Source of the DNA: a virus
Taxonomy: Duplodnaviria > Heunggongvirae > Uroviricota > Caudoviricetes
IMG/VR virus record: IMGVR_UViG_2529292919_000008
DNA length: 53,981 bases
Reading direction: 5' to 3' (one strand)
Part shown: piece after piece, positions 9,593-46,655 of the stretch
Position numbering within the stretch: the stretch's first letter is position 1
Layout of the letters: each line of letters opens with the position of its first letter
Notes under the pieces: model-generated
What the model saw: only the letters and a program-made list of their open reading frames with translations
The model's database searches: none
Told to the model about the DNA's origin: nothing
Translations under genes and position numbers: made by a program

Positions 9593-10249
9593 TCAGCCGC
9601 CGGACGCACTGCCGTAGTTCACTCCGGTGATCACCGCCACCGCCGCGGTACGGCGACGACGCCAGTTGATCCAGCGCTCCGCACGGATGGCCACGCTGCC
9701 TGTCTGGAACATGGAAACCAGCTCCACCGGGGACGGCGTGGTACTGTCGCCGGTCGGCTCAGACTGCATTTCCAGTGATGCCTCGCGGGACATATCCACT
9801 GCCACGCCTCCGTCATCCGCCAGATAAATATCCGGGGCATTCACCAGCACCAGCTGGTCACCCACGTACTGGGAGACAATCACCGGCAGCCCCTGGAAGG
9901 AGCCACCCAGCAGGGTCATGTCCGGGTATTCCTTCTGACCCAGCGCATTTTTACGCATGGACAGTGCCAGGGCATTGGTGCTGGACATCAGCCAGACCGC
10001 ACCGGTGGGCTGCAGGTTTGCTGCCACAAACTGTCCAAACGCAGCCTCTGCATCCGCATCCGGGTTACCGGTTGATGCCGTGCCCTTCACATCATGGGTG
10101 ATGGACGCCGGGGAGACATCTGCCACTGCGGCTTTTTTCGGGTCCACAAAGTCTGTATCCAGACGCGCCACCACCGCTTCCGCCAGCGCATTACGGACCA
10201 GTGCATCAGCAGCCGGACTGGAAAAACGGATCAATTCTTCCGTCAGTAC
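9593..10249 (-). pseudogene. 3' fragment of the HK97-type major capsid gene, split by the Mu-like insertion
   Basis: Translation ...LTEELIRFSSPAADALVRNALAEAV...FQTGSVAIRAERWINWRRRRTAAVAVITGVNY looks like an HK97-fold capsid C-terminus. The frame continues upstream only into Mu-end sequence and resumes in frame at 46661. Confidence 0.75.
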
Positions 10250-10410
10250 TGTGGGGTAGTGATCAATTCTGGGCGGAGTTAGTGCAGCCTGGTAGAACCG
10301 GCAAGCCTTGTGTGGCGCGGGGTGTGGTGATTTAGCGTGATTCTGGGCGGATTTGTGAGAAATGACCAAAAACGCTTTTTTTTGCGCTTTTTTCTGGGCG
10401 CTTTTGATCT
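10250..10410 (+). promoter_or_regulatory. Left end (attL) with three transposase-binding-like repeats
   Basis: TTCTGGGCG occurs at 10267, 10341 and 10391, and the same motif recurs at the right end. The third copy is preceded by GCGCTTTTT, as in the right terminus. Confidence 0.6.
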
Positions 10411-10561: not shown

Positions 10562-11209
10562 TTATGCTGATTTCTTGTTTACAGGCTTAGTTTCTTGCTC
10601 CGGTGTGACGGGAACGCGATCACCTGGTGTTCCAGCACAGAAAATGGCTTTGGCGCGGCGCAAAATCTCTTTGTCATTTTCCTCATCGCCAGCTAATGCC
10701 ATGCAAACAGCGTCTTTAAGCGATTGCCTGATGTTCAGGCTTTGAATGGCCTTTCTTTGCTCCTCAAGTTCGCTATCGGCTTGCTTAGTTTGCCTGGTGG
10801 GTTGCTGTAGGCGTTCCAAGATTCCTTTAATGCCCATATCGCATATTGCACTTATCAGCTGTTCCTTATCTTCTGTGGACGCTCTTTTCAATAACTCGTT
10901 AACTAGCTCGTTTGTAATATCGGGAGAAGGCTGCGCTGTTTGATTTGATAGAGAACTTTCTTTGGCGATGGGTTCCTCACCGTAAGCGAGCCAATTTAAG
11001 CTCACTTGTTCTTTATCTGATATAAGGCAAGCTATTTTAAAAGAAGGCTCTGTTCCTTTATGAATGTAGTTGTTTAAGGTTGAAGGGGGGATTCCCCAAT
11101 CACTCGCAGCAGTTCTGACACTACGGTTACCTATCAGCTTTACTAAACGCTCTCTGAAACTTTCTTTTTCCCGGTCGACAAAAGAAAAAGCATCATCATT
11201 TCTAGTCAT
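10562..11209 (-). CDS. Putative repressor (Mu c-like position), HTH DNA-binding protein
   Basis: 215 aa, transcribed leftward next to the left end and divergent from ner. HTH-like segment RTAASDWGIPPSTLNNYI...SLNWLAYGE. Confidence 0.5.
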   Translation of the reverse strand: MTRNDDAFSFVDREKESFRERLVKLIGNRSVRTAASDWGIPPSTLNNYIHKGTEPSFKIACLISDKEQVSLNWLAYGEEPIAKESSLSNQTAQPSPDITNELVNELLKRASTEDKEQLISAICDMGIKGILERLQQPTRQTKQADSELEEQRKAIQSLNIRQSLKDAVCMALAGDEENDKEILRRAKAIFCAGTPGDRVPVTPEQETKPVNKKSA

Positions 11210-11231
11210 TTTTTCTTTCCTCTATAACTTA

Positions 11232-11259
11232 TTGATTTTAATTGCAAAAACCATATAAA
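11232..11259 (+). promoter_or_regulatory. Candidate sigma70 early promoter (TTGATT, 16-nt spacer, TATAAA) for ner-A-B
   Basis: Hexamers read directly in the c/ner divergent intergenic region; not validated. Confidence 0.3.
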
Positions 11260-11342
11260 GACCAAAATCAAAAAGAAAATACAAAGAAAGGGCTATTTTT
11301 GCTTTACATGGGCTACATATGGATCAATACTTATATCCGAAG

Positions 11343-11375
11343 GGATAACACGGCGGTGTTATCCGCACGGATAAC
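11343..11375 (+). promoter_or_regulatory. Operator-like palindrome GGATAACAC-N4-GTGTTATCC plus third GGATAAC half-site
   Basis: Perfect 9-bp inverted repeat at 11343-11364 and an extra half-site at 11369-11375, just upstream of the ner start. Confidence 0.45.
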
Positions 11376-11391
11376 TTTTAAGGGTAACCTA

Positions 11392-11628
11392 ATGATGGTT
11401 AGAAATGAAGTAATGAACAAAGACTGGCACCGCGAGTACATCGTTGCCGCTGTGCACACCAAAGGTTTTACATTGCGTGAACTTTCTGAACGCGCTGGTC
11501 TAAAAAAAGACTCTTTAAAAAATGCACTGTATCGCTCATGCCCTAAATATGAACGCATCATAGCCGATGCTATTGGTGTGGAACCTGCGGAGATCTGGCC
11601 AAGCCGGTATGCCAGTAAGGCGGCGTAA
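11392..11628 (+). CDS. ner: Ner-like DNA-binding regulator
   Basis: 78 aa. Matches Mu Ner (...IWPSRY... C-terminus). Stop overlaps the A start (TAATG). Confidence 0.8.
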   Translation: MMVRNEVMNKDWHREYIVAAVHTKGFTLRELSERAGLKKDSLKNALYRSCPKYERIIADAIGVEPAEIWPSRYASKAA

Positions 11629-13670
11629 TGTTTTATTCAGCCAATGAGCTGGCCGGTCTTCCTGGTTTGCCCGGTACAGTTCAGGGGGTGCGCTGGACGC
11701 TCAATCGGATCACAGATACGCACCCGGAATGGAAGCGCAAGCGCGAAGGCACCAAAGCATTCGAGTATCACATCGACTGCCTGCCCGCTGAAGCGCAGAA
11801 AGTTTTACGTAAGCGCCTGACCCATCAGGTTCTGGAAGATGCACAACTGCCCGCCGTGGTTGAGCAGAAGGCAGTTAAAAACGTCGCCGTTCGCGATGAA
11901 CTGGAAGTGATGGTCAAATGCCCGGAACTGGCATTACGCGAAGTCCAGGCACTGACCGACAAGCAAAAGGCCATTGCTGATGCGCGGATATTGCTGGCTA
12001 CTGAAGTGCATAAACTGCGTGAATACGCCGGAATGACCAGGAAGGCCGCGTTAAAGCACATCGTTGATGGTGTGCGCATGGGGGCGTTGCCTGACCGCAT
12101 TATCGAAGCAGCGAATACTGCAAATGCACGTCAGGGAAAGCGAACCGGTGTCAGCACCGGCAGCCTGGATAGCTGGTACTCCAGCTGGGTGATGGCGCGC
12201 GGTGATGCCAATCAGTTACTGGCGTTACTGGCTCCCGGTCATCATAAGGGAACACCGTGGGAGCAGGTCTGGTGGTTGAGCGATTTCTTTATGTTCTATC
12301 GCTCATGGAAGCGCCCGACCGTTGAATACGCTTATCGCGAGTTTTCAGCCTGGTGGCATGAGAAACACGCGAATGATGCGGGAATGCTGGCGGCACTGCC
12401 TTCAGTTCACGCAGTAAGACGGGTGTTAAGCAACGTCCCGGTGATTGTTAAGGAGCGTTTCCGCTCCACCGGTTCAGCCTGGCGTTCGCTCAATCCTTTT
12501 GTGCGGCGCGACTGGAGCACATTACCGGTTAATGCGGTATGGGTCGGGGATGGTCACTGTATGAAAATGACTGCGTTTAACCCACTGACCGGCAATATTT
12601 TCCGGCCAGAAGTGACGCTGGTTATGGATGCGGGTCAACGCTTTGTTGTGGGCTGGTCACTATCCCTGTCGGAGAACGTGATAGCCGTTGCTGATGCGTT
12701 ACGTTACGGCATGGCGCAGCACGGGATACCGCTGATTTATTACTCCGATAACGGGGGCGGTGAAAAAAACCGGGTGCTTGATGCCGATATTACCGGGATT
12801 CTGCCCCGGCTGGGTGTGGAACATCACACGGGGATACCAGGTAACCCGCAGGGGCGCGGGGTGATTGAACGGGCAAACAAAGGAATACCCAAAGACGTGG
12901 CTCTGAGTTTCCAGACGTACTGCGCAAGGGATGCAGACAAGGAAACCGTAATGATGCAGCAACGGATTATGCAGTCAGCCATTAAGGCCACCCACAAAGG
13001 GAAAGAACTGACAAAACGGCAGGTTAAGGCGAGGGATGAAATCCCCACCTTTGAGCAACTGCTGGCAGCCATAGAGCTGGAGGTCAGACGCTATAACAAC
13101 CGGCCACACAGCAGCCTACCCCGCAAAGAGGATGGCGAATATTACAGCCCGGCAGCGTATCGCCGGAAACTGATAAAAGAGCAGAATGTTGAAATTGATT
13201 TCCTGTCGCCGGAAGAACTGCATGAAATGTTCAGACCGGAAGTGACGCGCAAAACATTTCGCGGGGAAATTCAGTTATTCAACAATATTTATTACTCATA
13301 TGAGCTGGCCGCAGAGCACGGGAATGAAGTCAGGGTCAGTTACGATATTCATGATGCAAACAGCGTCATTGTCCGGCGGGCTGATGGCTCTTATATCTGC
13401 GATGCCATCTGGAACGGTAACAAGGTTGATGCCTTCGCTAAACCAGTTATCGAACAAAAACTGGAGAAACGCGTCAGGGGCCGCATTGCACGGGCCACGC
13501 AGAAAATCGAAGAGGCTAAACGCGAGCTTACCCCGGCTATTACGCAGAAGCCTGACTTTAATCTGGGATATGGACTGGAACGCCCGGAGAAAAAGGAAAA
13601 AGAAGAACTTTATTTATTCGCATCTGAACGCGAGCGCAATTTAAAGAAAAACGGCACAAACAACCATTAA
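11628..13670 (+). CDS. A: Mu-type DDE transposase A
   Basis: 680 aa directly after ner. Translation carries WVGDGH and GIPGNPQGRGVIER segments that I read as the MuA-type DDE core; no search run. Confidence 0.9.
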   Translation: MFYSANELAGLPGLPGTVQGVRWTLNRITDTHPEWKRKREGTKAFEYHIDCLPAEAQKVLRKRLTHQVLEDAQLPAVVEQKAVKNVAVRDELEVMVKCPELALREVQALTDKQKAIADARILLATEVHKLREYAGMTRKAALKHIVDGVRMGALPDRIIEAANTANARQGKRTGVSTGSLDSWYSSWVMARGDANQLLALLAPGHHKGTPWEQVWWLSDFFMFYRSWKRPTVEYAYREFSAWWHEKHANDAGMLAALPSVHAVRRVLSNVPVIVKERFRSTGSAWRSLNPFVRRDWSTLPVNAVWVGDGHCMKMTAFNPLTGNIFRPEVTLVMDAGQRFVVGWSLSLSENVIAVADALRYGMAQHGIPLIYYSDNGGGEKNRVLDADITGILPRLGVEHHTGIPGNPQGRGVIERANKGIPKDVALSFQTYCARDADKETVMMQQRIMQSAIKATHKGKELTKRQVKARDEIPTFEQLLAAIELEVRRYNNRPHSSLPRKEDGEYYSPAAYRRKLIKEQNVEIDFLSPEELHEMFRPEVTRKTFRGEIQLFNNIYYSYELAAEHGNEVRVSYDIHDANSVIVRRADGSYICDAIWNGNKVDAFAKPVIEQKLEKRVRGRIARATQKIEEAKRELTPAITQKPDFNLGYGLERPEKKEKEELYLFASERERNLKKNGTNNH

Positions 13671-13688: not shown

Positions 13689-14582
13689 ATGAGTTTAATT
13701 ACGCAATTAAATGACGTAATGGCCCGTCGCGGCTATACGCAGACCCACGTCGCCCGTGCTATTGGTCGTAGCAGCGCCGTTATCAGCCAGTATTTGCAGG
13801 GTAAATATCAGGGCGATATGTCTGATATTGAAGAACGCATTTCTGCCTTTGTGACCCGTGAGCGGGAAAAAGAAAACAGCCGCCGTATTAAAGCAAAGTT
13901 TGTGACCACCGGTATGGCTGCCAAAGGACTGGAGGTGCTGGCCTACGCTCACCTGGAATGTGAAATCTGTGTGCTGTATGGCGCAGCAGGTCTTGGCAAA
14001 ACAATGATTCTGCGTGAATACGCCGCCAGAAACCGGGATGCGGTCCTGATTGAAGCCGACCCGGGCTATACAGCCAGAACACTGCTTGAGGAGCTGTGCC
14101 GCCAGCTGGGGGTAAAAGTTCGCGGCAATATCCACGAACTGATTGATGCATGTGTGCGAGAACTGCGTGATTCCGGTCGCCTGCTGATGGTGGACGAGGC
14201 TGAACTGCTCCCCTATCGCGCACTGGAGGTTCTGCGCCGTCTGCATGACAAAGCGGGTATCGGGATTGTCCTGGCGGGTATGCCACGCCTTCTGATTAAC
14301 CTCAAGGGACGTCGCGGTGAGTTCGCCCAGTTATACAGCCGTGTGGCGCTGGCGCTTAACCTGGGCGATACGCTGTCGCAGGAAGATTTTAACCAGATAG
14401 CTACCGGGCTGATGCCGGAAGCAGCAGAACCGGAAATCAGCGAGGCGCTCTACGCACGCTCACTGGGTAATGCCCGCCGCCTGTTCAAACTGGCGCGCGG
14501 TGTGTACCGGATTTGTGATATCAGCGATGCACCGGTCAGTGTGCAGGCCATTGATAAATTCGCAGAAATGTTAATTCACTGA
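13689..14582 (+). CDS. B: Mu B-like AAA+ ATPase (transposition target DNA activator)
   Basis: 297 aa. N-terminal HTH region, Walker A GAAGLGKT and Walker B-like LLMVDEAE. Directly downstream of A. Confidence 0.85.
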   Translation: MSLITQLNDVMARRGYTQTHVARAIGRSSAVISQYLQGKYQGDMSDIEERISAFVTREREKENSRRIKAKFVTTGMAAKGLEVLAYAHLECEICVLYGAAGLGKTMILREYAARNRDAVLIEADPGYTARTLLEELCRQLGVKVRGNIHELIDACVRELRDSGRLLMVDEAELLPYRALEVLRRLHDKAGIGIVLAGMPRLLINLKGRRGEFAQLYSRVALALNLGDTLSQEDFNQIATGLMPEAAEPEISEALYARSLGNARRLFKLARGVYRICDISDAPVSVQAIDKFAEMLIH

Positions 14583-26753: not shown

Positions 26754-28349
26754 ATGGCACAGCTTGTTGATATTTACGGACGCCCGCTGAAACGTGAGGT
26801 GCTCAAAACCACGCAGTCGGTCAGAGTGGCAGAACGGCTGCGCATTTATCCCGACCACCCGTCCCGTGGTCTGAATATCAGAAAACTGCCGCGCATTCTG
26901 GAAGCTGCCGAACGCGGTTATCTTCCGGCGCAGGCGATGCTGTTTGCGGATATGGAAGAACGTGATGGCCACCTGTTCGCCGAGATGGAAAAGCGCAAAA
27001 AAGCATTGCTGACGCTGGACTGGTCGGTGGAGCCGCCCCGCAATGCCTCGAAAGCAGAAAAGGAGCTGGCCGCCGCCGTGGATGAATGGCTGCACGGTAT
27101 CCCGGACATGGAGGACATCATCCTCAACGGGATGAGCAGTGTCGGTTACGGCTTCAGCTGTCAGGAAATCAGCTGGGCGTTCGTGGATAAAACGTGGTTA
27201 CCGGATGCGGTGACGCTGCGCCCGCATAACTGGTTTATTACCCTGCCGGAACACAATGACGAACTCCGGCTGGATGACGGCAACCGTGGGGAAGACGGTA
27301 AGGACGGTTCCGCATTGTGGCCGTTCGGCTGGCTGGTTCACCGTTACAACGCCCGGTCGGGGTTCCTGGGTTCATCCGGCCTGTTCCGCGTACTGGTCTG
27401 GCCGTATCTGTTTAAAAACTTTGCGCTGCGTGATATGGCGGAATTTCTGGAGATTTACGGCCTTCCGGCGCGCATTGCGTACTATGCACAGGGCACCAGT
27501 GACGAGGACCGGGACAACATTCTCGAAGCCCTGGTCAATCTGGGCCATGAAGCGGTGGCAGCACTGCCGCAGGGTAACGAGATTGAATTCAAGGAGGCTG
27601 CCTCCGGCGGGCCGGAGGCGTTCATGTCGATGGTGGAATGGGCGGAGCGCACCACCTCAAAAGTGATTCTGGGCAGTACGCTGACCAGCCAGGCTGACGG
27701 TAAAACCTCCACCAACGCACTGGGTAATGTCCATAACGAGGTCCGGCACGACATTCTGACCGCTGATGCACGCCAGCTGTCCGGCATGTTCAGCAGTCTG
27801 ATACAGATGATGGCCAGCCTCAACGGCTGGCAGGATATCCCGTCACGCCGTCTTCCGCGCCTGGTGTTTGATGTGCAGCAGGAAGCTGACATTAAGGGCG
27901 TGGCGGACGCCGTCAGCGTGTTGCTCAACAGTGTGGGTATGAAGGATATCCCGGCGTCGTGGGTACGCAAAAAAACCGGTATCCCCACCCCGAAAGACGG
28001 CGAAGAGGTACTGGTGCCGGCGGCACAGCGTCTCCCTGTGCTGGCGGGCCTCAGCCAGCTGCGTGAGCGACTGAATGTTGCTGCACTCAGTCAGCAGGAC
28101 AACGGAGAGGACGACCCGGCACAACGCGCCATCGACCGGGCAGAACTTCCGGCAGAGGCCATCGCGCAGGGAATGAACGAACTGGTGGCCCCACTGGTGC
28201 AGGCCATACAGGAAGGCCGGGATGCAGACGAGGCCATGAACGTACTGGCGGAAGCATGGCCGGAACTGCCGGATGACACGCTGCGGCAGTTGCTGACGCA
28301 GGCATTCTTTGTGGCGGATATCTGGGGGCGACTGAATGCCGACAGCTGA
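26754..28349 (+). CDS. Portal protein (Mu gp29-like, DUF935)
   Basis: 531 aa; position between TerL and the F-like gene. Confidence 0.75.
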   Translation: MAQLVDIYGRPLKREVLKTTQSVRVAERLRIYPDHPSRGLNIRKLPRILEAAERGYLPAQAMLFADMEERDGHLFAEMEKRKKALLTLDWSVEPPRNASKAEKELAAAVDEWLHGIPDMEDIILNGMSSVGYGFSCQEISWAFVDKTWLPDAVTLRPHNWFITLPEHNDELRLDDGNRGEDGKDGSALWPFGWLVHRYNARSGFLGSSGLFRVLVWPYLFKNFALRDMAEFLEIYGLPARIAYYAQGTSDEDRDNILEALVNLGHEAVAALPQGNEIEFKEAASGGPEAFMSMVEWAERTTSKVILGSTLTSQADGKTSTNALGNVHNEVRHDILTADARQLSGMFSSLIQMMASLNGWQDIPSRRLPRLVFDVQQEADIKGVADAVSVLLNSVGMKDIPASWVRKKTGIPTPKDGEEVLVPAAQRLPVLAGLSQLRERLNVAALSQQDNGEDDPAQRAIDRAELPAEAIAQGMNELVAPLVQAIQEGRDADEAMNVLAEAWPELPDDTLRQLLTQAFFVADIWGRLNADS

Positions 28350-43615: not shown

Positions 43616-44188
43616 ATGAATACGGTTGATTTATTTCGTGCCATGTTACCACCGGTCAGCTATGACCCGAACGGGAAATATATTTCAGCAGAACTGAACG
43701 CAGAAGCAGCCATTATGGATGAAGTAAAAGCGTCAGCTGCACGAGTGCTTGCATCTGTCACACCATTTTACGCATCCATGACGCTGTCTGACTGGGAACG
43801 AGTGTATGGAGTAATACCCCGCGACGGTGCCACACAGCAGGAACGCCGAGAAAATATTCTTATAAAGATGGCTGCAACTGGTGGGTTATCTATCCCTTAT
43901 TTTAAACAACTTGCAGCCAGCCTCGGGTACACCATAACAATTACTGAACTTCATCCATTCAGAGCGGGGATAAACCGATGTGGTGATCGTCTCTATATAA
44001 CAGATGCCCGATGGATTTGGCAGGTTAATGTCACAGGAAGCAGAACGCCAGCCTACAGATTCAGAACCGGAGTATCTGCTGCCGGGGAGCCGTTACTTTC
44101 CTTTGGTGCCCCTGTACTGGAAGAAACATTTAAAGACCTTAAACCCGCTTTTACTTATTGCCATTTCACATATAAGGAGGAGCAGTAA
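43616..44188 (+). CDS. Tail protein (Mu gp48, DUF2313-like)
   Basis: 190 aa; synteny. Confidence 0.5.
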
Positions 44189-45012
44189 TGCAAAATCTGA
44201 TGCCCCCGATAAATACACCGGATCAATTGTTTCATGATGGTGACCCCACTCAGGGGATAGAAGGAACCCTCGTGACTGCTGGTTATTTAAACAATCAGCA
44301 GGGAGCAACCCGTGATTTACAGCAGGAACTCCTTAATGTTCTTGGTGGTGCACATATTCAACCTGACCCCAAAAAAACGGATCAGCTACTTACCGCGCTT
44401 CGCGCGTTGCTGTTAAGCCGCAAAAATCCGTTTGGCGATATCAAATCGGACGGCACAGTACCAACGGCTCTCGAAAACCTTGGTTTGGGAGAAGGAGCTC
44501 CAGCTATTGGCGTTCCGTTCTTCTGGCCGTCCGCTGCAATGCCAGATACCGTAATCGATAGCTGGTCCGGTATGGTGTTTTTGAAGTTCAACGGCGCGAA
44601 ATTCTCTGCCACTGATTACCCTGTGCTGGCGAAAGTGTTTCCGGCGCTGGCATTACCTGACGCACGCGGTGATTTCATTCGTATCTGGGATGATGGGCGC
44701 GGGATTGATGTCGGACGTACCCTACTTTCAGGGCAATCACACACAATTATGGATCATGCACACAATATGGAATTGTGGACGGGGGACGGGCTTGCCGCAG
44801 GAAGTGCACGGGAAGGAGTAAACCCAGGAATACTGGCTACATATGGTGACGGGGGAATAGTTAAAACGGACGAACCCGGTCTTAATGTGCCTTCCTCACT
44901 ACGAGCTCTTAGCTCTCGTAGTGTTAAACGTTATGGTGACATTAGTGGAAATGTAGGTACAGAAACCCGTCCACGAAATATTGCATTTAACTTTCTGGTG
45001 AGGGCTAAATAA
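44188..45012 (+). CDS. S: Tail fibre protein S (constant Sc region plus currently expressed variable Sv region)
   Basis: 274 aa. A gix-like crossover site lies inside it at codons about 94-102 ([10 protein letters not shown]). Confidence 0.65.
44468..44493 (+). promoter_or_regulatory. gix-like recombination site (left)
   Basis: CTCTCGAAAACC-TT-GGTTTGGGAGAA: 12-2-12 dyad that resembles Mu gix and Salmonella hix as recalled. Confidence 0.55.
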
Positions 45013-45605
45013 TGAAACCTGTTTTTGATGAAAATGGGCTGGCTACAGTGCCGGGCGATATGCGTTGTTTTTATTATAATGCAGTAACGTATGAATATAC
45101 CGGCTGGTCTGATGAATATATTAATACTGGCGTAAGTATGCCCGCCTGTTCCACTGGTATTGACCCGGGCGAAAACATTCCGGGAAAAGTGGCAGTATTT
45201 ACGGGTAAGGGATGGAGCCATGAAGAAGACCATCGCAATGAGACCGTTTACTCAACTGAAAATGGCGCAGCTGTTACAGTGGATTATATCGGTGCCATCA
45301 AAGACGGTTATGTCACGCTTTCACCGTTAACGCCATACGATAAATGGGATGGTGAGAAATGGGTGACGGATACCGAGGCACAGCATAGCGCCGCAGTAGA
45401 AGCGGCAGAAGCACAGCGCCAGTCGCTGATTGATGCTGCAATGGCTTCCATCAGTCTGATTCAACTGAAATTACAGGCCGGGCGGAAGCTGACGCAGCCA
45501 GAAAACACCCGACTTAACGCTGTGCTGGATTATATTGACGCGGTGACGGCAACAGATACCAGCACAGCGCCGGACGTCATCTGGCCTGAACTGCCGGAGG
45601 CGTAG
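45012..45605 (+). CDS. U: Tail fibre assembly protein U
   Basis: C-terminal ...LNAVLDYIDAVTATDTSTAPDVIWPELPEA, which I recognise as a tail-fibre-assembly (Tfa) C-terminus. Confidence 0.65.
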   Translation: MKPVFDENGLATVPGDMRCFYYNAVTYEYTGWSDEYINTGVSMPACSTGIDPGENIPGKVAVFTGKGWSHEEDHRNETVYSTENGAAVTVDYIGAIKDGYVTLSPLTPYDKWDGEKWVTDTEAQHSAAVEAAEAQRQSLIDAAMASISLIQLKLQAGRKLTQPENTRLNAVLDYIDAVTATDTSTAPDVIWPELPEA

Positions 45606-46017
45606 GCCATTCAATATCTGGCGCACCGGAAGTATCGACCAGCTCCAGTGCGTCCAGATAATCCAGCCACAAATTATATTGCGCCAGTTCCTCACCTTTC
45701 AGGCGACCAATCGCCGCTTTACCAGGCCATTGCTTACTGTTTATGTATTCGTTGACCTGATTAATCAATTGCTGCTTTTCCAGTTCGGCTGCGGCAATTT
45801 GTTCCTCATGAGTTGGCGGTGGAATATCAATCCATGCAGGCATTCCGTCGATGACACCTCTGTATTTTCCTTCTGGTGCTTCCTTCATAAATTCGGCGGC
45901 AACAGTGTCGTCAATTTCGATTCCATCACCGGGCCATTCGCCGGATTCCTGATAAGCGATTTTAAGCTCCACAGGGAAAAACGCATTTTTATCGGCACTG
46001 AAAATATATTTCTGCAT
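45577..46017 (-). CDS. Alternative tail fibre assembly protein U' (inverted orientation)
   Basis: MQKYIFSADKNAFF... with Tfa-type C-terminus ...LWLDYLDALELVDTSGAPDIEWPTPP. Convergent with and overlapping U. Confidence 0.6.
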   Translation of the reverse strand: MQKYIFSADKNAFFPVELKIAYQESGEWPGDGIEIDDTVAAEFMKEAPEGKYRGVIDGMPAWIDIPPPTHEEQIAAAELEKQQLINQVNEYINSKQWPGKAAIGRLKGEELAQYNLWLDYLDALELVDTSGAPDIEWPTPPAVQAR

Positions 46018-46019
46018 TT

Positions 46020-46378
46020 CTACCGTCCTATCGAAATATAACTGAATCTGTATTGCTGTGAGATATCACTGGTTGCCACACGCCACGCTGAATTACTGAT
46101 ATGTTCAAAATTTACAGACAAAACCTGCGGGGCAGGATTCGACGGGTCTGACTGAACGGCATCAGACATAACACTGACTGAAACCATCGGCTGATTAGGG
46201 AATGGTATAGGGAAGTGTCCACTGATAAAGCGGGTCGTGTTTCCTGAAAAAGTGCCAAACTGAACAATATATCCACCTGGTAGCCTGAACCATCCCGAAC
46301 CAGAAGCGAATGCTCCCATATCCGGTATCTGATTATCTCCTGTGCCCACATCCCTTTTCGCCGCTTCTCCTAAACCAA
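46020..46378 (-). CDS. Alternative tail fibre variable segment S'v (promoterless cassette)
   Basis: Reading frame continues through the right gix-like site (...GLGEAAKRDVGTGDNQ...), matching the GLGE junction in S. Has no upstream constant region in this orientation. Confidence 0.5.
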
Positions 46379-46390
46379 CGTTTATGAAAA
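46365..46390 (+). promoter_or_regulatory. gix-like recombination site (right, inverted)
   Basis: TTCTCCTAAACC-AA-CGTTTATGAAAA. Its reverse complement shares TTGGTTT(G/A)GGAGAA with the left site, and the central dinucleotide is inverted (AA vs TT). Confidence 0.55.
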
Positions 46391-46444
46391 TGCAGAAATA
46401 ACGAGCAAATGGCATCATTCCTGCTTTTGTCAGGGTGATCTACC

Positions 46445-46540
46445 ATGTTTATAGGCTATGTACGCGCATCAACAAATGACCAGGACACCGATTTACAACG
46501 CAATGCGTTGAACTGTGCAGGATACGAGCTGATTTTTTGA
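46445..46540 (+). pseudogene. gin: Truncated gin-type serine invertase (N-terminal 31 codons only)
   Basis: MFIGYVRASTNDQDTDLQRNALNCAGYELIF then stop. Matches the Gin/Hin/Pin N-terminus including the catalytic-serine region (YVRxST). A full invertase is about 190 aa. Confidence 0.8.
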
Positions 46541-46569: not shown

Positions 46570-46655
46570 TTAGCGTCCAATTCTGGGCTTTTTGGTTGCG
46601 CTCTCTCCGCCCAGAATTGTGCGCCAATTAGCCCAGAAAAAAACGCGAAGTTACA
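46570..46655 (+). promoter_or_regulatory. Right end (attR) with transposase-binding-like repeats
   Basis: TTCTGGGC at 46581-46588, inverted CGCCCAGAATTG at 46608-46619 and GCCCAGAAAAAAACGCG at 46631-46647. Element ends ...TTACA at 46655. Confidence 0.6.

Follow-up and report, generated by a model that had tools for sequence, protein, structure and literature searches.

Boundaries and gene content of the insert

The window, by which we mean the whole 53,981-nt stretch of viral DNA analyzed here, carries a lambdoid (Stx-phage-like) prophage whose major capsid/prohead-protease gene is split in two by a Mu-like phage, the two parts lying at 9593 to 10249 and 46656 to 47941 on the − strand. The main features of the inserted element, apart from the end sites detailed below, are as follows.

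10245 to 10249, no strand: left target-site duplication AGTAC, from the junction sequence and the empty site
10250 to 46655, + strand, 36,406 bp: complete Mu-like transposable prophage, 5'-TGT...ACA-3', running from TGTGGGGT to AAGTTACA
10562 to 11209, − strand: c-like repressor (Pfam Phage_CI_repr; position as Mu c)
11392 to 11628, + strand: Ner-like early regulator (Pfam HTH_35, E 9e-26)
11628 to 13670, + strand: MuA-type DDE transposase, 680 aa (Pfam HTH_Tnp_Mu_1, rve, and Mu-transpos_C)
13689 to 14582, + strand: MuB-type AAA+ ATPase, target-DNA activator (Pfam AAA_22 and TniB; N-terminal HTH)
46656 to 46660, no strand: right target-site duplication AGTAC, from the junction sequence and the empty site

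Similarity to the major head/prohead-protease genes of Stx/lambdoid phages ends exactly at position 10249. An unoccupied lambdoid capsid gene was found in E. coli E2348/69, reading ...GTCAGTACCGCAATGG... with a single AGTAC, and this empty site therefore fixes both junctions and defines the insert as 10250 to 46655. The paired TG...CA ends proposed in the first-pass annotation were thereby borne out, in that TGTGGGGT starts at 10250 and AAGTTACA ends at 46655. The split gene flanking the insert is 100% identical to the intact E. coli E2348/69 gene.

The genes for the transposase and the ATPase are located 1.4 kb from the left end, and Pfam matches to Mor, Portal_Mu, Phage_Mu_F, Mu-like_Pro, Mu-like_gpT, a tail sheath, DNA_circ_N, and Baseplate_J were obtained inside the element, the interior of which also holds a tape measure gene. 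The termini, the target duplication, the MuA/MuB-type genes, three sites per end, and the virion genes make up the full set of structural properties of a Mu-like transposable phage. Judged from its sequence, the element is a Mu-like transposable prophage which inactivated another prophage. The ends of the element are defined by the motif copies, as had been annotated, but what they enclose is a phage and not a plain transposon.

Several minor features were also recorded. Between the repressor gene and ner lie two palindromic 16-mers, TATCCGAAGGGATAAC and TATCCGCACGGATAAC, 26 nt apart at 11334 to 11375; these are likely operators and perhaps constitute a transposition enhancer too. Toward the right end (44188 to 46418) there is a tail-fibre segment with gene pairs on opposite strands. 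The Gin/Hin-type invertase at 46445 to 46540, just inside site R3, is a 31-codon remnant, and since this adjoining invertase has been cut to 31 codons, the segment is probably locked in a single orientation. Four relatives (L003, L004, L008, and L138) have the same stump, listed there as a partial gene, and no com/mom-like genes follow the remnant in the window.

Six repeated sites at the two termini

The first-pass annotation had described one shared motif in three direct copies at the left end and three copies in mixed orientation at the right end. All six copies are present, but the third left copy starts at 10392 rather than 10391. The 9-mer TTCTGGGCG is exact in four of them, whereas the last base is T instead of G in the other two (TTCTGGGCT), and it is therefore the 8-mer core TTCTGGGC that is common to all six sites, which are arranged as follows.

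10257 to 10275, + strand: L1, TAGTGATCAA-TTCTGGGCG, 9-mer at 10267 to 10275, core at nt 18-26 from the left terminus
10331 to 10349, + strand: L2, TTTAGCGTGA-TTCTGGGCG, 9-mer at 10341 to 10349, core at nt 92-100
10382 to 10400, + strand: L3, TTGCGCTTTT-TTCTGGGCG, 9-mer at 10392 to 10400, core at nt 143-151
46571 to 46589, + strand: R3, TAGCGTCCAA-TTCTGGGCT, 9-mer at 46581 to 46589, core at nt 67-75 from the right terminus, inverted relative to R1 and R2
46608 to 46626, − strand: R2, TGGCGCACAA-TTCTGGGCG, 9-mer at 46608 to 46616, core at nt 40-48, exactly 22 bp inside R1
46630 to 46648, − strand: R1, TCGCGTTTTT-TTCTGGGCT, 9-mer at 46630 to 46638, core at nt 18-26 from the right terminus

L1, L2, and L3 are conserved in relatives, as is R1, which is conserved in right ends from IMG/VR as well. 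The outermost core occupies nt 18-26 from both termini alike.

The clustering of these copies is far from random. The 9-mer TTCTGGGCG occurs 4 times in the 54-kb window versus 0.61 expected, a count that none of 100 shuffles reached, and the 8-mer TTCTGGGC occurs 9 times versus 2.4 expected. Six of these nine 8-mers fall within the terminal 151 + 75 nt (226 nt), where 0.013 would be expected from the background rate (Poisson P ~6e-15). In an unbiased count of 8-mers over both ends, TTCTGGGC ranked first, and a repeat search returned the left family at spacings of 74 and 51 nt, together with inverted pairs at the right end.

Alignment of the six sites revealed a two-part structure of ~19 bp, in which an upstream T-N-G-C/T-G is located ~5 nt before the core TTCTGGGC(G/T). 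The upstream half is present in five of the six aligned sites, and the half-site of L2 is 2 nt out of register. A GCG(C)TTTTTT prefix had been assigned to the outer copies at both termini. This is correct at the right end, where it belongs to the outermost copy R1, but on the left the prefix (GCGCTTTTTT) is carried by L3, the innermost copy at 10392, and not by the copy at 10267; the GCG nevertheless captures part of the conserved upstream half-site. Likeness also extends beyond the core in pairs of sites: L1 and R2 share CAATTCTGGGCGGAG, L2 and R3 share ATTTAGCGT, and L3 and R1 share the GCG-T-run.

A further copy of the motif, at 27663 to 27674, falls within the portal gene, close to the genome center (17.4 kb in from the left end), where 12 nt match L2 (GTGATTCTGGGC). 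It is kept in close relatives and reads CCATTCTTGGC in the GGAC-type element of E. coli C5. As a candidate site it was rejected: it drifts as coding sequence, and since it does not follow the core switch in C5, we treated it as a match that probably arose by chance.

Between the left sites (10300 to 10335 and 10360 to 10391), short blocks are conserved from E. coli to Sodalis, namely, AAGCC(C)TT, GGCGCGG, AAATGA, and a T-run before GC-CT, and a tandem CGCTTTTTTTTG / CGCTTTTTTCTG is present at 10373 to 10396. These may be host-factor, bending, or packaging signals.

Ends, insertions, and transposases of relatives

It had been suggested that the motif could be used to find related elements. We searched IMG/VR with the pattern TTCTGGRC-N14-TTCTGGRC and obtained 82 matches, with ~100 expected by chance on a rough estimate of the collection size. 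TGT is present 17 nt upstream (position −17) in 24 of the 82, versus ~1.3 expected (P ~6e-24), and these 24 matches represent 16 distinct ends, nearly all of them credible Mu-like right ends and each set in different flanking DNA. The two-site matches that do not have TGT at −17 were rejected as ends: they are not credible, and the total is near the chance level. The suggestion thus holds when the geometry is included (TGT-N14-TTCTGGRC-N14-TTCTGGRC), but the exact motif, which is lineage-specific, retrieves close relatives only. TGT-N14-core-N14-core provides a simple signature for annotating such ends.

Among 5,426 complete E. coli genomes, 51 contain left-end sequence, 76% to >99% identical where aligned, and in 15 of those genomes most of the 1.4-kb query is present, with 85-99% identity. 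The closest copy is the prophage in eutC of E. coli E2348/69, which is 99.4% identical over the left 1.4 kb and separate from the intact capsid gene of that strain; our literature search on this Mu-like prophage returned nothing specific. Relatives were found in eutC, trg-hokB, PAAR, aga, phnJ, chbG, mel, ypdF, a TonB-dependent receptor gene, and another capsid gene. Their insertion sites are scattered across the copies examined, with no fixed attachment site.

The junctions of these relatives were then compared with those of the window copy, whose 5-bp duplication AGTAC is the sole 5-bp case among the 11 insertions examined. Ten independent E. coli insertions with identical TGT...ACA termini (L003, L004, L005, L007, and L138 to L143) are flanked by 4-bp duplications: CACT, TTTG, AGTA, CCCT, GAGA, ACTT, CTGG, CATT, ACTT, and CGCT. 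Six of the 10 have an A immediately before the left copy, which would also permit a 5-bp reading; the other 4 have a different base there. Several ways of reassigning the termini so as to give the relatives 5 bp were tried, and none of them fits all cases. In E2348/69, the two eutC fragments sum to 892 nt; eutC is presumably an 888-nt gene, so that the sum would represent a net gain of 4.

Some of the relatives have been decayed by insertion sequences. The element of E. coli C5 (L006; 22752 to 23966 and 38315 to 40617) carries an IS3-family element and ISEc12, and its right end is unreadable past R3, ISEc12 having removed R1 and R2. The element of RM9088 (L009) carries IS66-family elements, ISEc12, and IS1 copies. 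A different kind of change was seen in the phnJ insertion of E. coli F163 (L008; locus 500 to 2200 versus window 10850 to 11850), in which the N-terminal part of the repressor, the operator region, ner, and the first ~75 transposase residues have been swapped as one block. Its transposase is 53% identical to that of the window over the first 75 residues and 98-99% identical over residues 76-290. This block exchange resembles the immunity swap between Mu and D108. The right flank of this copy shows a deletion and no duplication.

To reach beyond E. coli, 40 loci with transposase relatives, mostly ~45% identical, were fetched from species-representative genomes, and the region upstream of each transposase gene was scanned, blind to the motif, for any 7-mer with three copies in a 220-nt span. 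In Sodalis and Pantoea the scan returned three copies of TTCTGGACT, spaced 73 and 51 nt apart; in Klebsiella, Raoultella, Pluralibacter, and Limnobaculum the repeated word was ATTTGATAC, with spacings of 71 and 42 nt. The first of the three copies is located ~18 nt from a TG terminus in either group. Allowing one mismatch added Serratia H1w (TTCTGGAC) and Serratia PL17; the terminus of the latter, TGTGGGGGAGTGATCAA, almost equals that of the window element, but the cores differ, reading TTTTACAT, TTTTGCAT, and TTTTGCAC and spaced 74 and 51 nt apart. Scan matches at two further loci (L017 and L037) were discarded as coding repeats 2 kb from the transposase. The core types by lineage are TTCTGGAC in Sodalis, Pantoea, and Serratia; TTTGATAC in Klebsiella, Raoultella, and Limnobaculum; TTTTGCAY in Serratia PL17; and TTCTGGGC for the window type.

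Right ends could be read in two phages. In Pseudomonas phage VW-6B, the record of which lacks the left end, TTCTGGACT, TTTTGGACT, and TTCTGGACA are positioned at nt 18, 40, and 73, and in Yersinia phage vB_YpM_5, TTTGATAC is found at approximately nt 18, 40, and 75. The third right site is direct in both of these phages and inverted in the window element and in Mu, and for this reason the role of R3 may not be conserved. Klebsiella phage ST405-OXA48phi1.1 was dropped from the comparison, its record beginning inside the repressor gene and containing no ends. As for vB_YpM_5 itself (L052, MT374853; 4560 to 4930), the phage is filed under Muvirus and has a Mu-like gene order; its transposase, however, belongs to the family of the window enzyme (45% identical, versus 21% for MuA), and each of its ends has three TTTGATAC copies in direct orientation. 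From this record, Mu-like phages appear able to exchange the transposition module.

Taken together, the alignments indicated that the end geometry is family-wide and the core lineage-specific. Core changes in relatives are concerted, affecting every site available in a given element, and cores are conserved while spacers diverge. Across 15 aligned left ends, the invariant blocks include the terminal TGTGGGGT, TCTGG in each core, and a few other short inter-site blocks. Core positions 7-9 are GCG in seven E. coli elements (one G-to-T change apart) and ACT in Sodalis and Pantoea, and no element among the 15 mixes GGGCG and GGACT cores. The GGAC type is also found in the element of E. coli C5, with left cores TTCTGGACT, TTCTGGATC, and ATCTGGACT and the surviving R3 reading TTCTGGATT, and in an IMG/VR right end (L102) that shares the first 23 nt of the window's end, TGTAACTTCGCGTTTTTTTCTGG, and has GGAC at R1, R2, and an inverted R3.

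The transposase was examined for the segment that would read these sites. No phage record with a transposase at least 50% identical was found, and the nearest transposase cluster has 1,450 member sequences. A profile search of the PDB matched the enzyme to 1TNS and 4FCY, residues 1-61 also matching the Mu repressor 1G4D. When the PDB was queried with the protein and with a profile of 12 sequences, matches were confined to the N-terminal winged helix and the catalytic core. Neither of the solved MuA domains I-beta and I-gamma was detectably similar in sequence to residues 76-258, for which reason a structure was predicted. The AlphaFold2 model, built from 27 homologues (mean pLDDT 73; 85-90 over residues 100-200), has the Mu transpososome 4FCY as its best PDB match (E 8e-16 over ~550 aligned columns), with TnsB next.

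Compared with six GGGCG-type E. coli enzymes, the transposase of the GGAC-type C5 element has 11 private substitutions, 10 of which fall at aa 137-188, and its residues V142, Q181, E182, and L188 match the Sodalis enzyme. In the model, the 10 clustered substitutions map to predicted helices 138-151, 156-165, and 177-190, part of an all-helical region that separates the catalytic core from the N-terminal winged helix. This single covarying variant, placed on a medium-confidence model, suggests that residues 76-258 act as site readers. That the DNA-binding segment coevolved with its sites is likewise suggestive, on the basis of one natural variant, whose prophage is itself IS-degraded, and a clade-level correlation.

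Putative transposase sites, rival readings, and known systems

We consider it highly probable (about 0.88) that the motif is the conserved core of six predicted binding sites for the MuA-type transposase of the element itself, which together form attL and attR. The first-pass annotation had likewise called the repeats presumptive transposase-binding sites, and the computational tests all agree with this, namely, geometry, enrichment, conservation, and the presence of MuA- and MuB-type genes. Transposase binding, the match of half-sites to subdomains, and the role of each site are what we infer by analogy with Mu. Transposase protomers would bind the sites by tandem helix-turn-helix subdomains that follow an N-terminal enhancer-binding domain. 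The L1 and R1 cores at nt 18-26 would position the catalytic domains at the terminal CA-3', and R2, 22 bp (~two helical turns) inside R1, would, together with the distant L2 and L3 and the inverted R3, help to pair the ends into a transpososome. Nicking at the 3' ends would be followed by their joining to target DNA that the MuB-type ATPase has captured, and a short duplication, here AGTAC, would result.

Proteins other than the transposase were considered as ligands of the repeats. Operators for the phage repressor or for Ner, controlling early transcription or end accessibility, would suit a repressor gene that ends ~160 bp inside L3, and the Mu repressor and the N-terminal domain of MuA are homologous, in line with the profile match of residues 1-61 to 1G4D. 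However, the repressor-ner intergenic region lacks the motif and has palindromic repeats of its own (TATCCGNNNGGATAAC), and there is no reason for a promoter operator to be present at both ends at equal distance from the termini. Moreover, in the F163 element the end sites are unchanged despite the swap of the immunity region and of the transposase N-terminal domain; that swap fits an N-terminal domain that would read the operator/enhancer and not the ends. We regard the operator reading as very improbable. Packaging (a pac site for terminase) or binding of a host architectural protein (IHF, HU, or Fis) is equally improbable. The pac site of Mu is located at the left end, between L1 and L2, and in the window, A/T-rich runs flank several copies and other conserved blocks occur between sites. 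A pac site, however, is needed at one end only, whereas the motif occurs at both, with mirror-image polarity and an identical distance to the terminus, and variation in the core tracks the transposase lineage across genera rather than host or terminase. The G+C-rich core TTCTGGGCG is not known to resemble the IHF or Fis consensus sequences, which speaks against these host factors.

Two further alternatives have even smaller chances. The element could be a Tn7-like or other cargo transposon, with TnsB-type sites and no phage: as in Tn7/CAST systems, it has TGT...ACA ends, a 5-bp duplication, asymmetric arrays of multiple ~20-bp sites, and a transposase of MuA/TnsB fold paired with an AAA+ ATPase, the latter matching Pfam TniB. 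Its interior is nevertheless a full Mu-type myovirus genome (Mor, portal, F, protease I, gpT, sheath, tape measure, DNA circularization, and baseplate J), the best structural match of the transposase is MuA rather than TnsB, insertions are scattered with no fixed attachment site, and no TnsA, TniQ, TnsD, or other target selector is annotated in the gene tables of the relatives. Finally, the copies could be nonfunctional leftovers of end duplication, or a chance cluster. The likeness of L1/R2, L2/R3, and L3/R1 beyond the core could indeed reflect a duplication history, but chance is excluded by the Poisson estimate (P ~6e-15), the cores are conserved while the spacers have diverged, and the same geometry recurs with different cores in distant relatives.

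Read as transposase sites, the ends of the element can be set beside those of Mu. Both have TG...CA termini, three direct left sites with L1 set apart from L2 and L3, an inverted R3, terminal sites equidistant from both ends, and a 22-bp step from R1 to R2, which recurs in VW-6B and vB_YpM_5. In Mu, the left-end CGAAA half-sites start at nt 22, 127, and 167 and the right-end ones at nt 22, 44, and (inverted) 57, compared with element cores at 18, 92, and 143 and at 18, 40, and (inverted) 67, so that the L1-L2/L2-L3 spacings are 105/40 nt in Mu and 74/51 nt here. Both types of site are bipartite, spanning 22 bp in Mu and ~19 bp in the element, but they are unrelated (...TTTCAYT...RCGAAAR versus TNGCG-N5-TTCTGGGCK). 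The two phages also share the gene order c, ner, A, B by the left end, a genome of ~36 kb, and an invertible tail-fibre segment with an invertase at the right end. Unlike in Mu, the invertase is truncated with no com/mom after it, and the relatives mostly have 4-bp duplications. The element lies outside phage Mu sensu stricto (Muvirus, MuA specificity), its sites being unlike the MuA consensus and its transposase being 21% identical to MuA.

Reading six end repeats as putative transposase-binding sites is standard for Mu-like prophages and has been applied to Mu, FluMu, Pnm1, and Sp18 (PMC2628397); the last three (Sp18 being from E. coli O157 Sakai) are prophages of the same kind as ours, with six repeat-inferred sites. 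In KS10, BcepMu, D3112, and B3, the end repeats differ from those of Mu along with divergent transposases (PMC2628397), and KS10 has four sites where our element has six; the transposases of these four phages are ~31% identical or less to the window enzyme. Six end sites are thus an ordinary feature for Mu-like phages, of which this is a clear example, and it is the lineage itself that is new. The Mu paradigm is extended to a new lineage and current understanding is not overturned.

Two joint departures of this lineage from Mu can be put forward tentatively, as a proposal that we hold to be somewhat less probable than even. Target duplications of 5 bp in Mu and 6 bp in B3 have been described (PMC8705779); here the target cut would normally be staggered by 4 bp, outside that range, the 5-bp window copy being the exception. 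At the same time, recognition would be modular, with a ~50-residue segment (aa 137-188) reading core positions 7-9 and natural swaps (GGGCG, GGACT, TTTTGCAY, and TTTGATAC) occurring on a fixed end geometry. If this is true, Mu-type transposition systems that are mutually orthogonal would be available ready-made.

A widespread uncharacterized lineage of Mu-like prophages, occurring in E. coli, Salmonella, Serratia, Sodalis, and other Enterobacterales, now has its cis-acting ends and exact boundaries fixed. The core variants on a constant geometry, together with the clustered substitutions, give a cheap start for mapping the specificity determinants of MuA/TnsB-type enzymes, which is relevant to the engineering of orthogonal transposition tools. 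The locus is also an example of one prophage knocked out by another. Insertion of a Mu-like phage into a lambdoid/Stx prophage has been documented, the inserted phages being Sp18-like (PMC10132054; records LC727881 and LC727895); the transposase of the Mu-like phage in LC727881 is 44.5% identical to that of the window, which places it in a different lineage. In the flanking lambdoid prophage of the window, a long open reading frame on the − strand (6796 to 9477) contains approximately four tandem copies of a ~54-residue unit (PVPRDGRDYDP-VLQ-AVNDAVANIPQPADGKSLTPDDVRPMLEQMVKEAVSHI) and overlaps a gene annotated as the portal protein in E2348/69.
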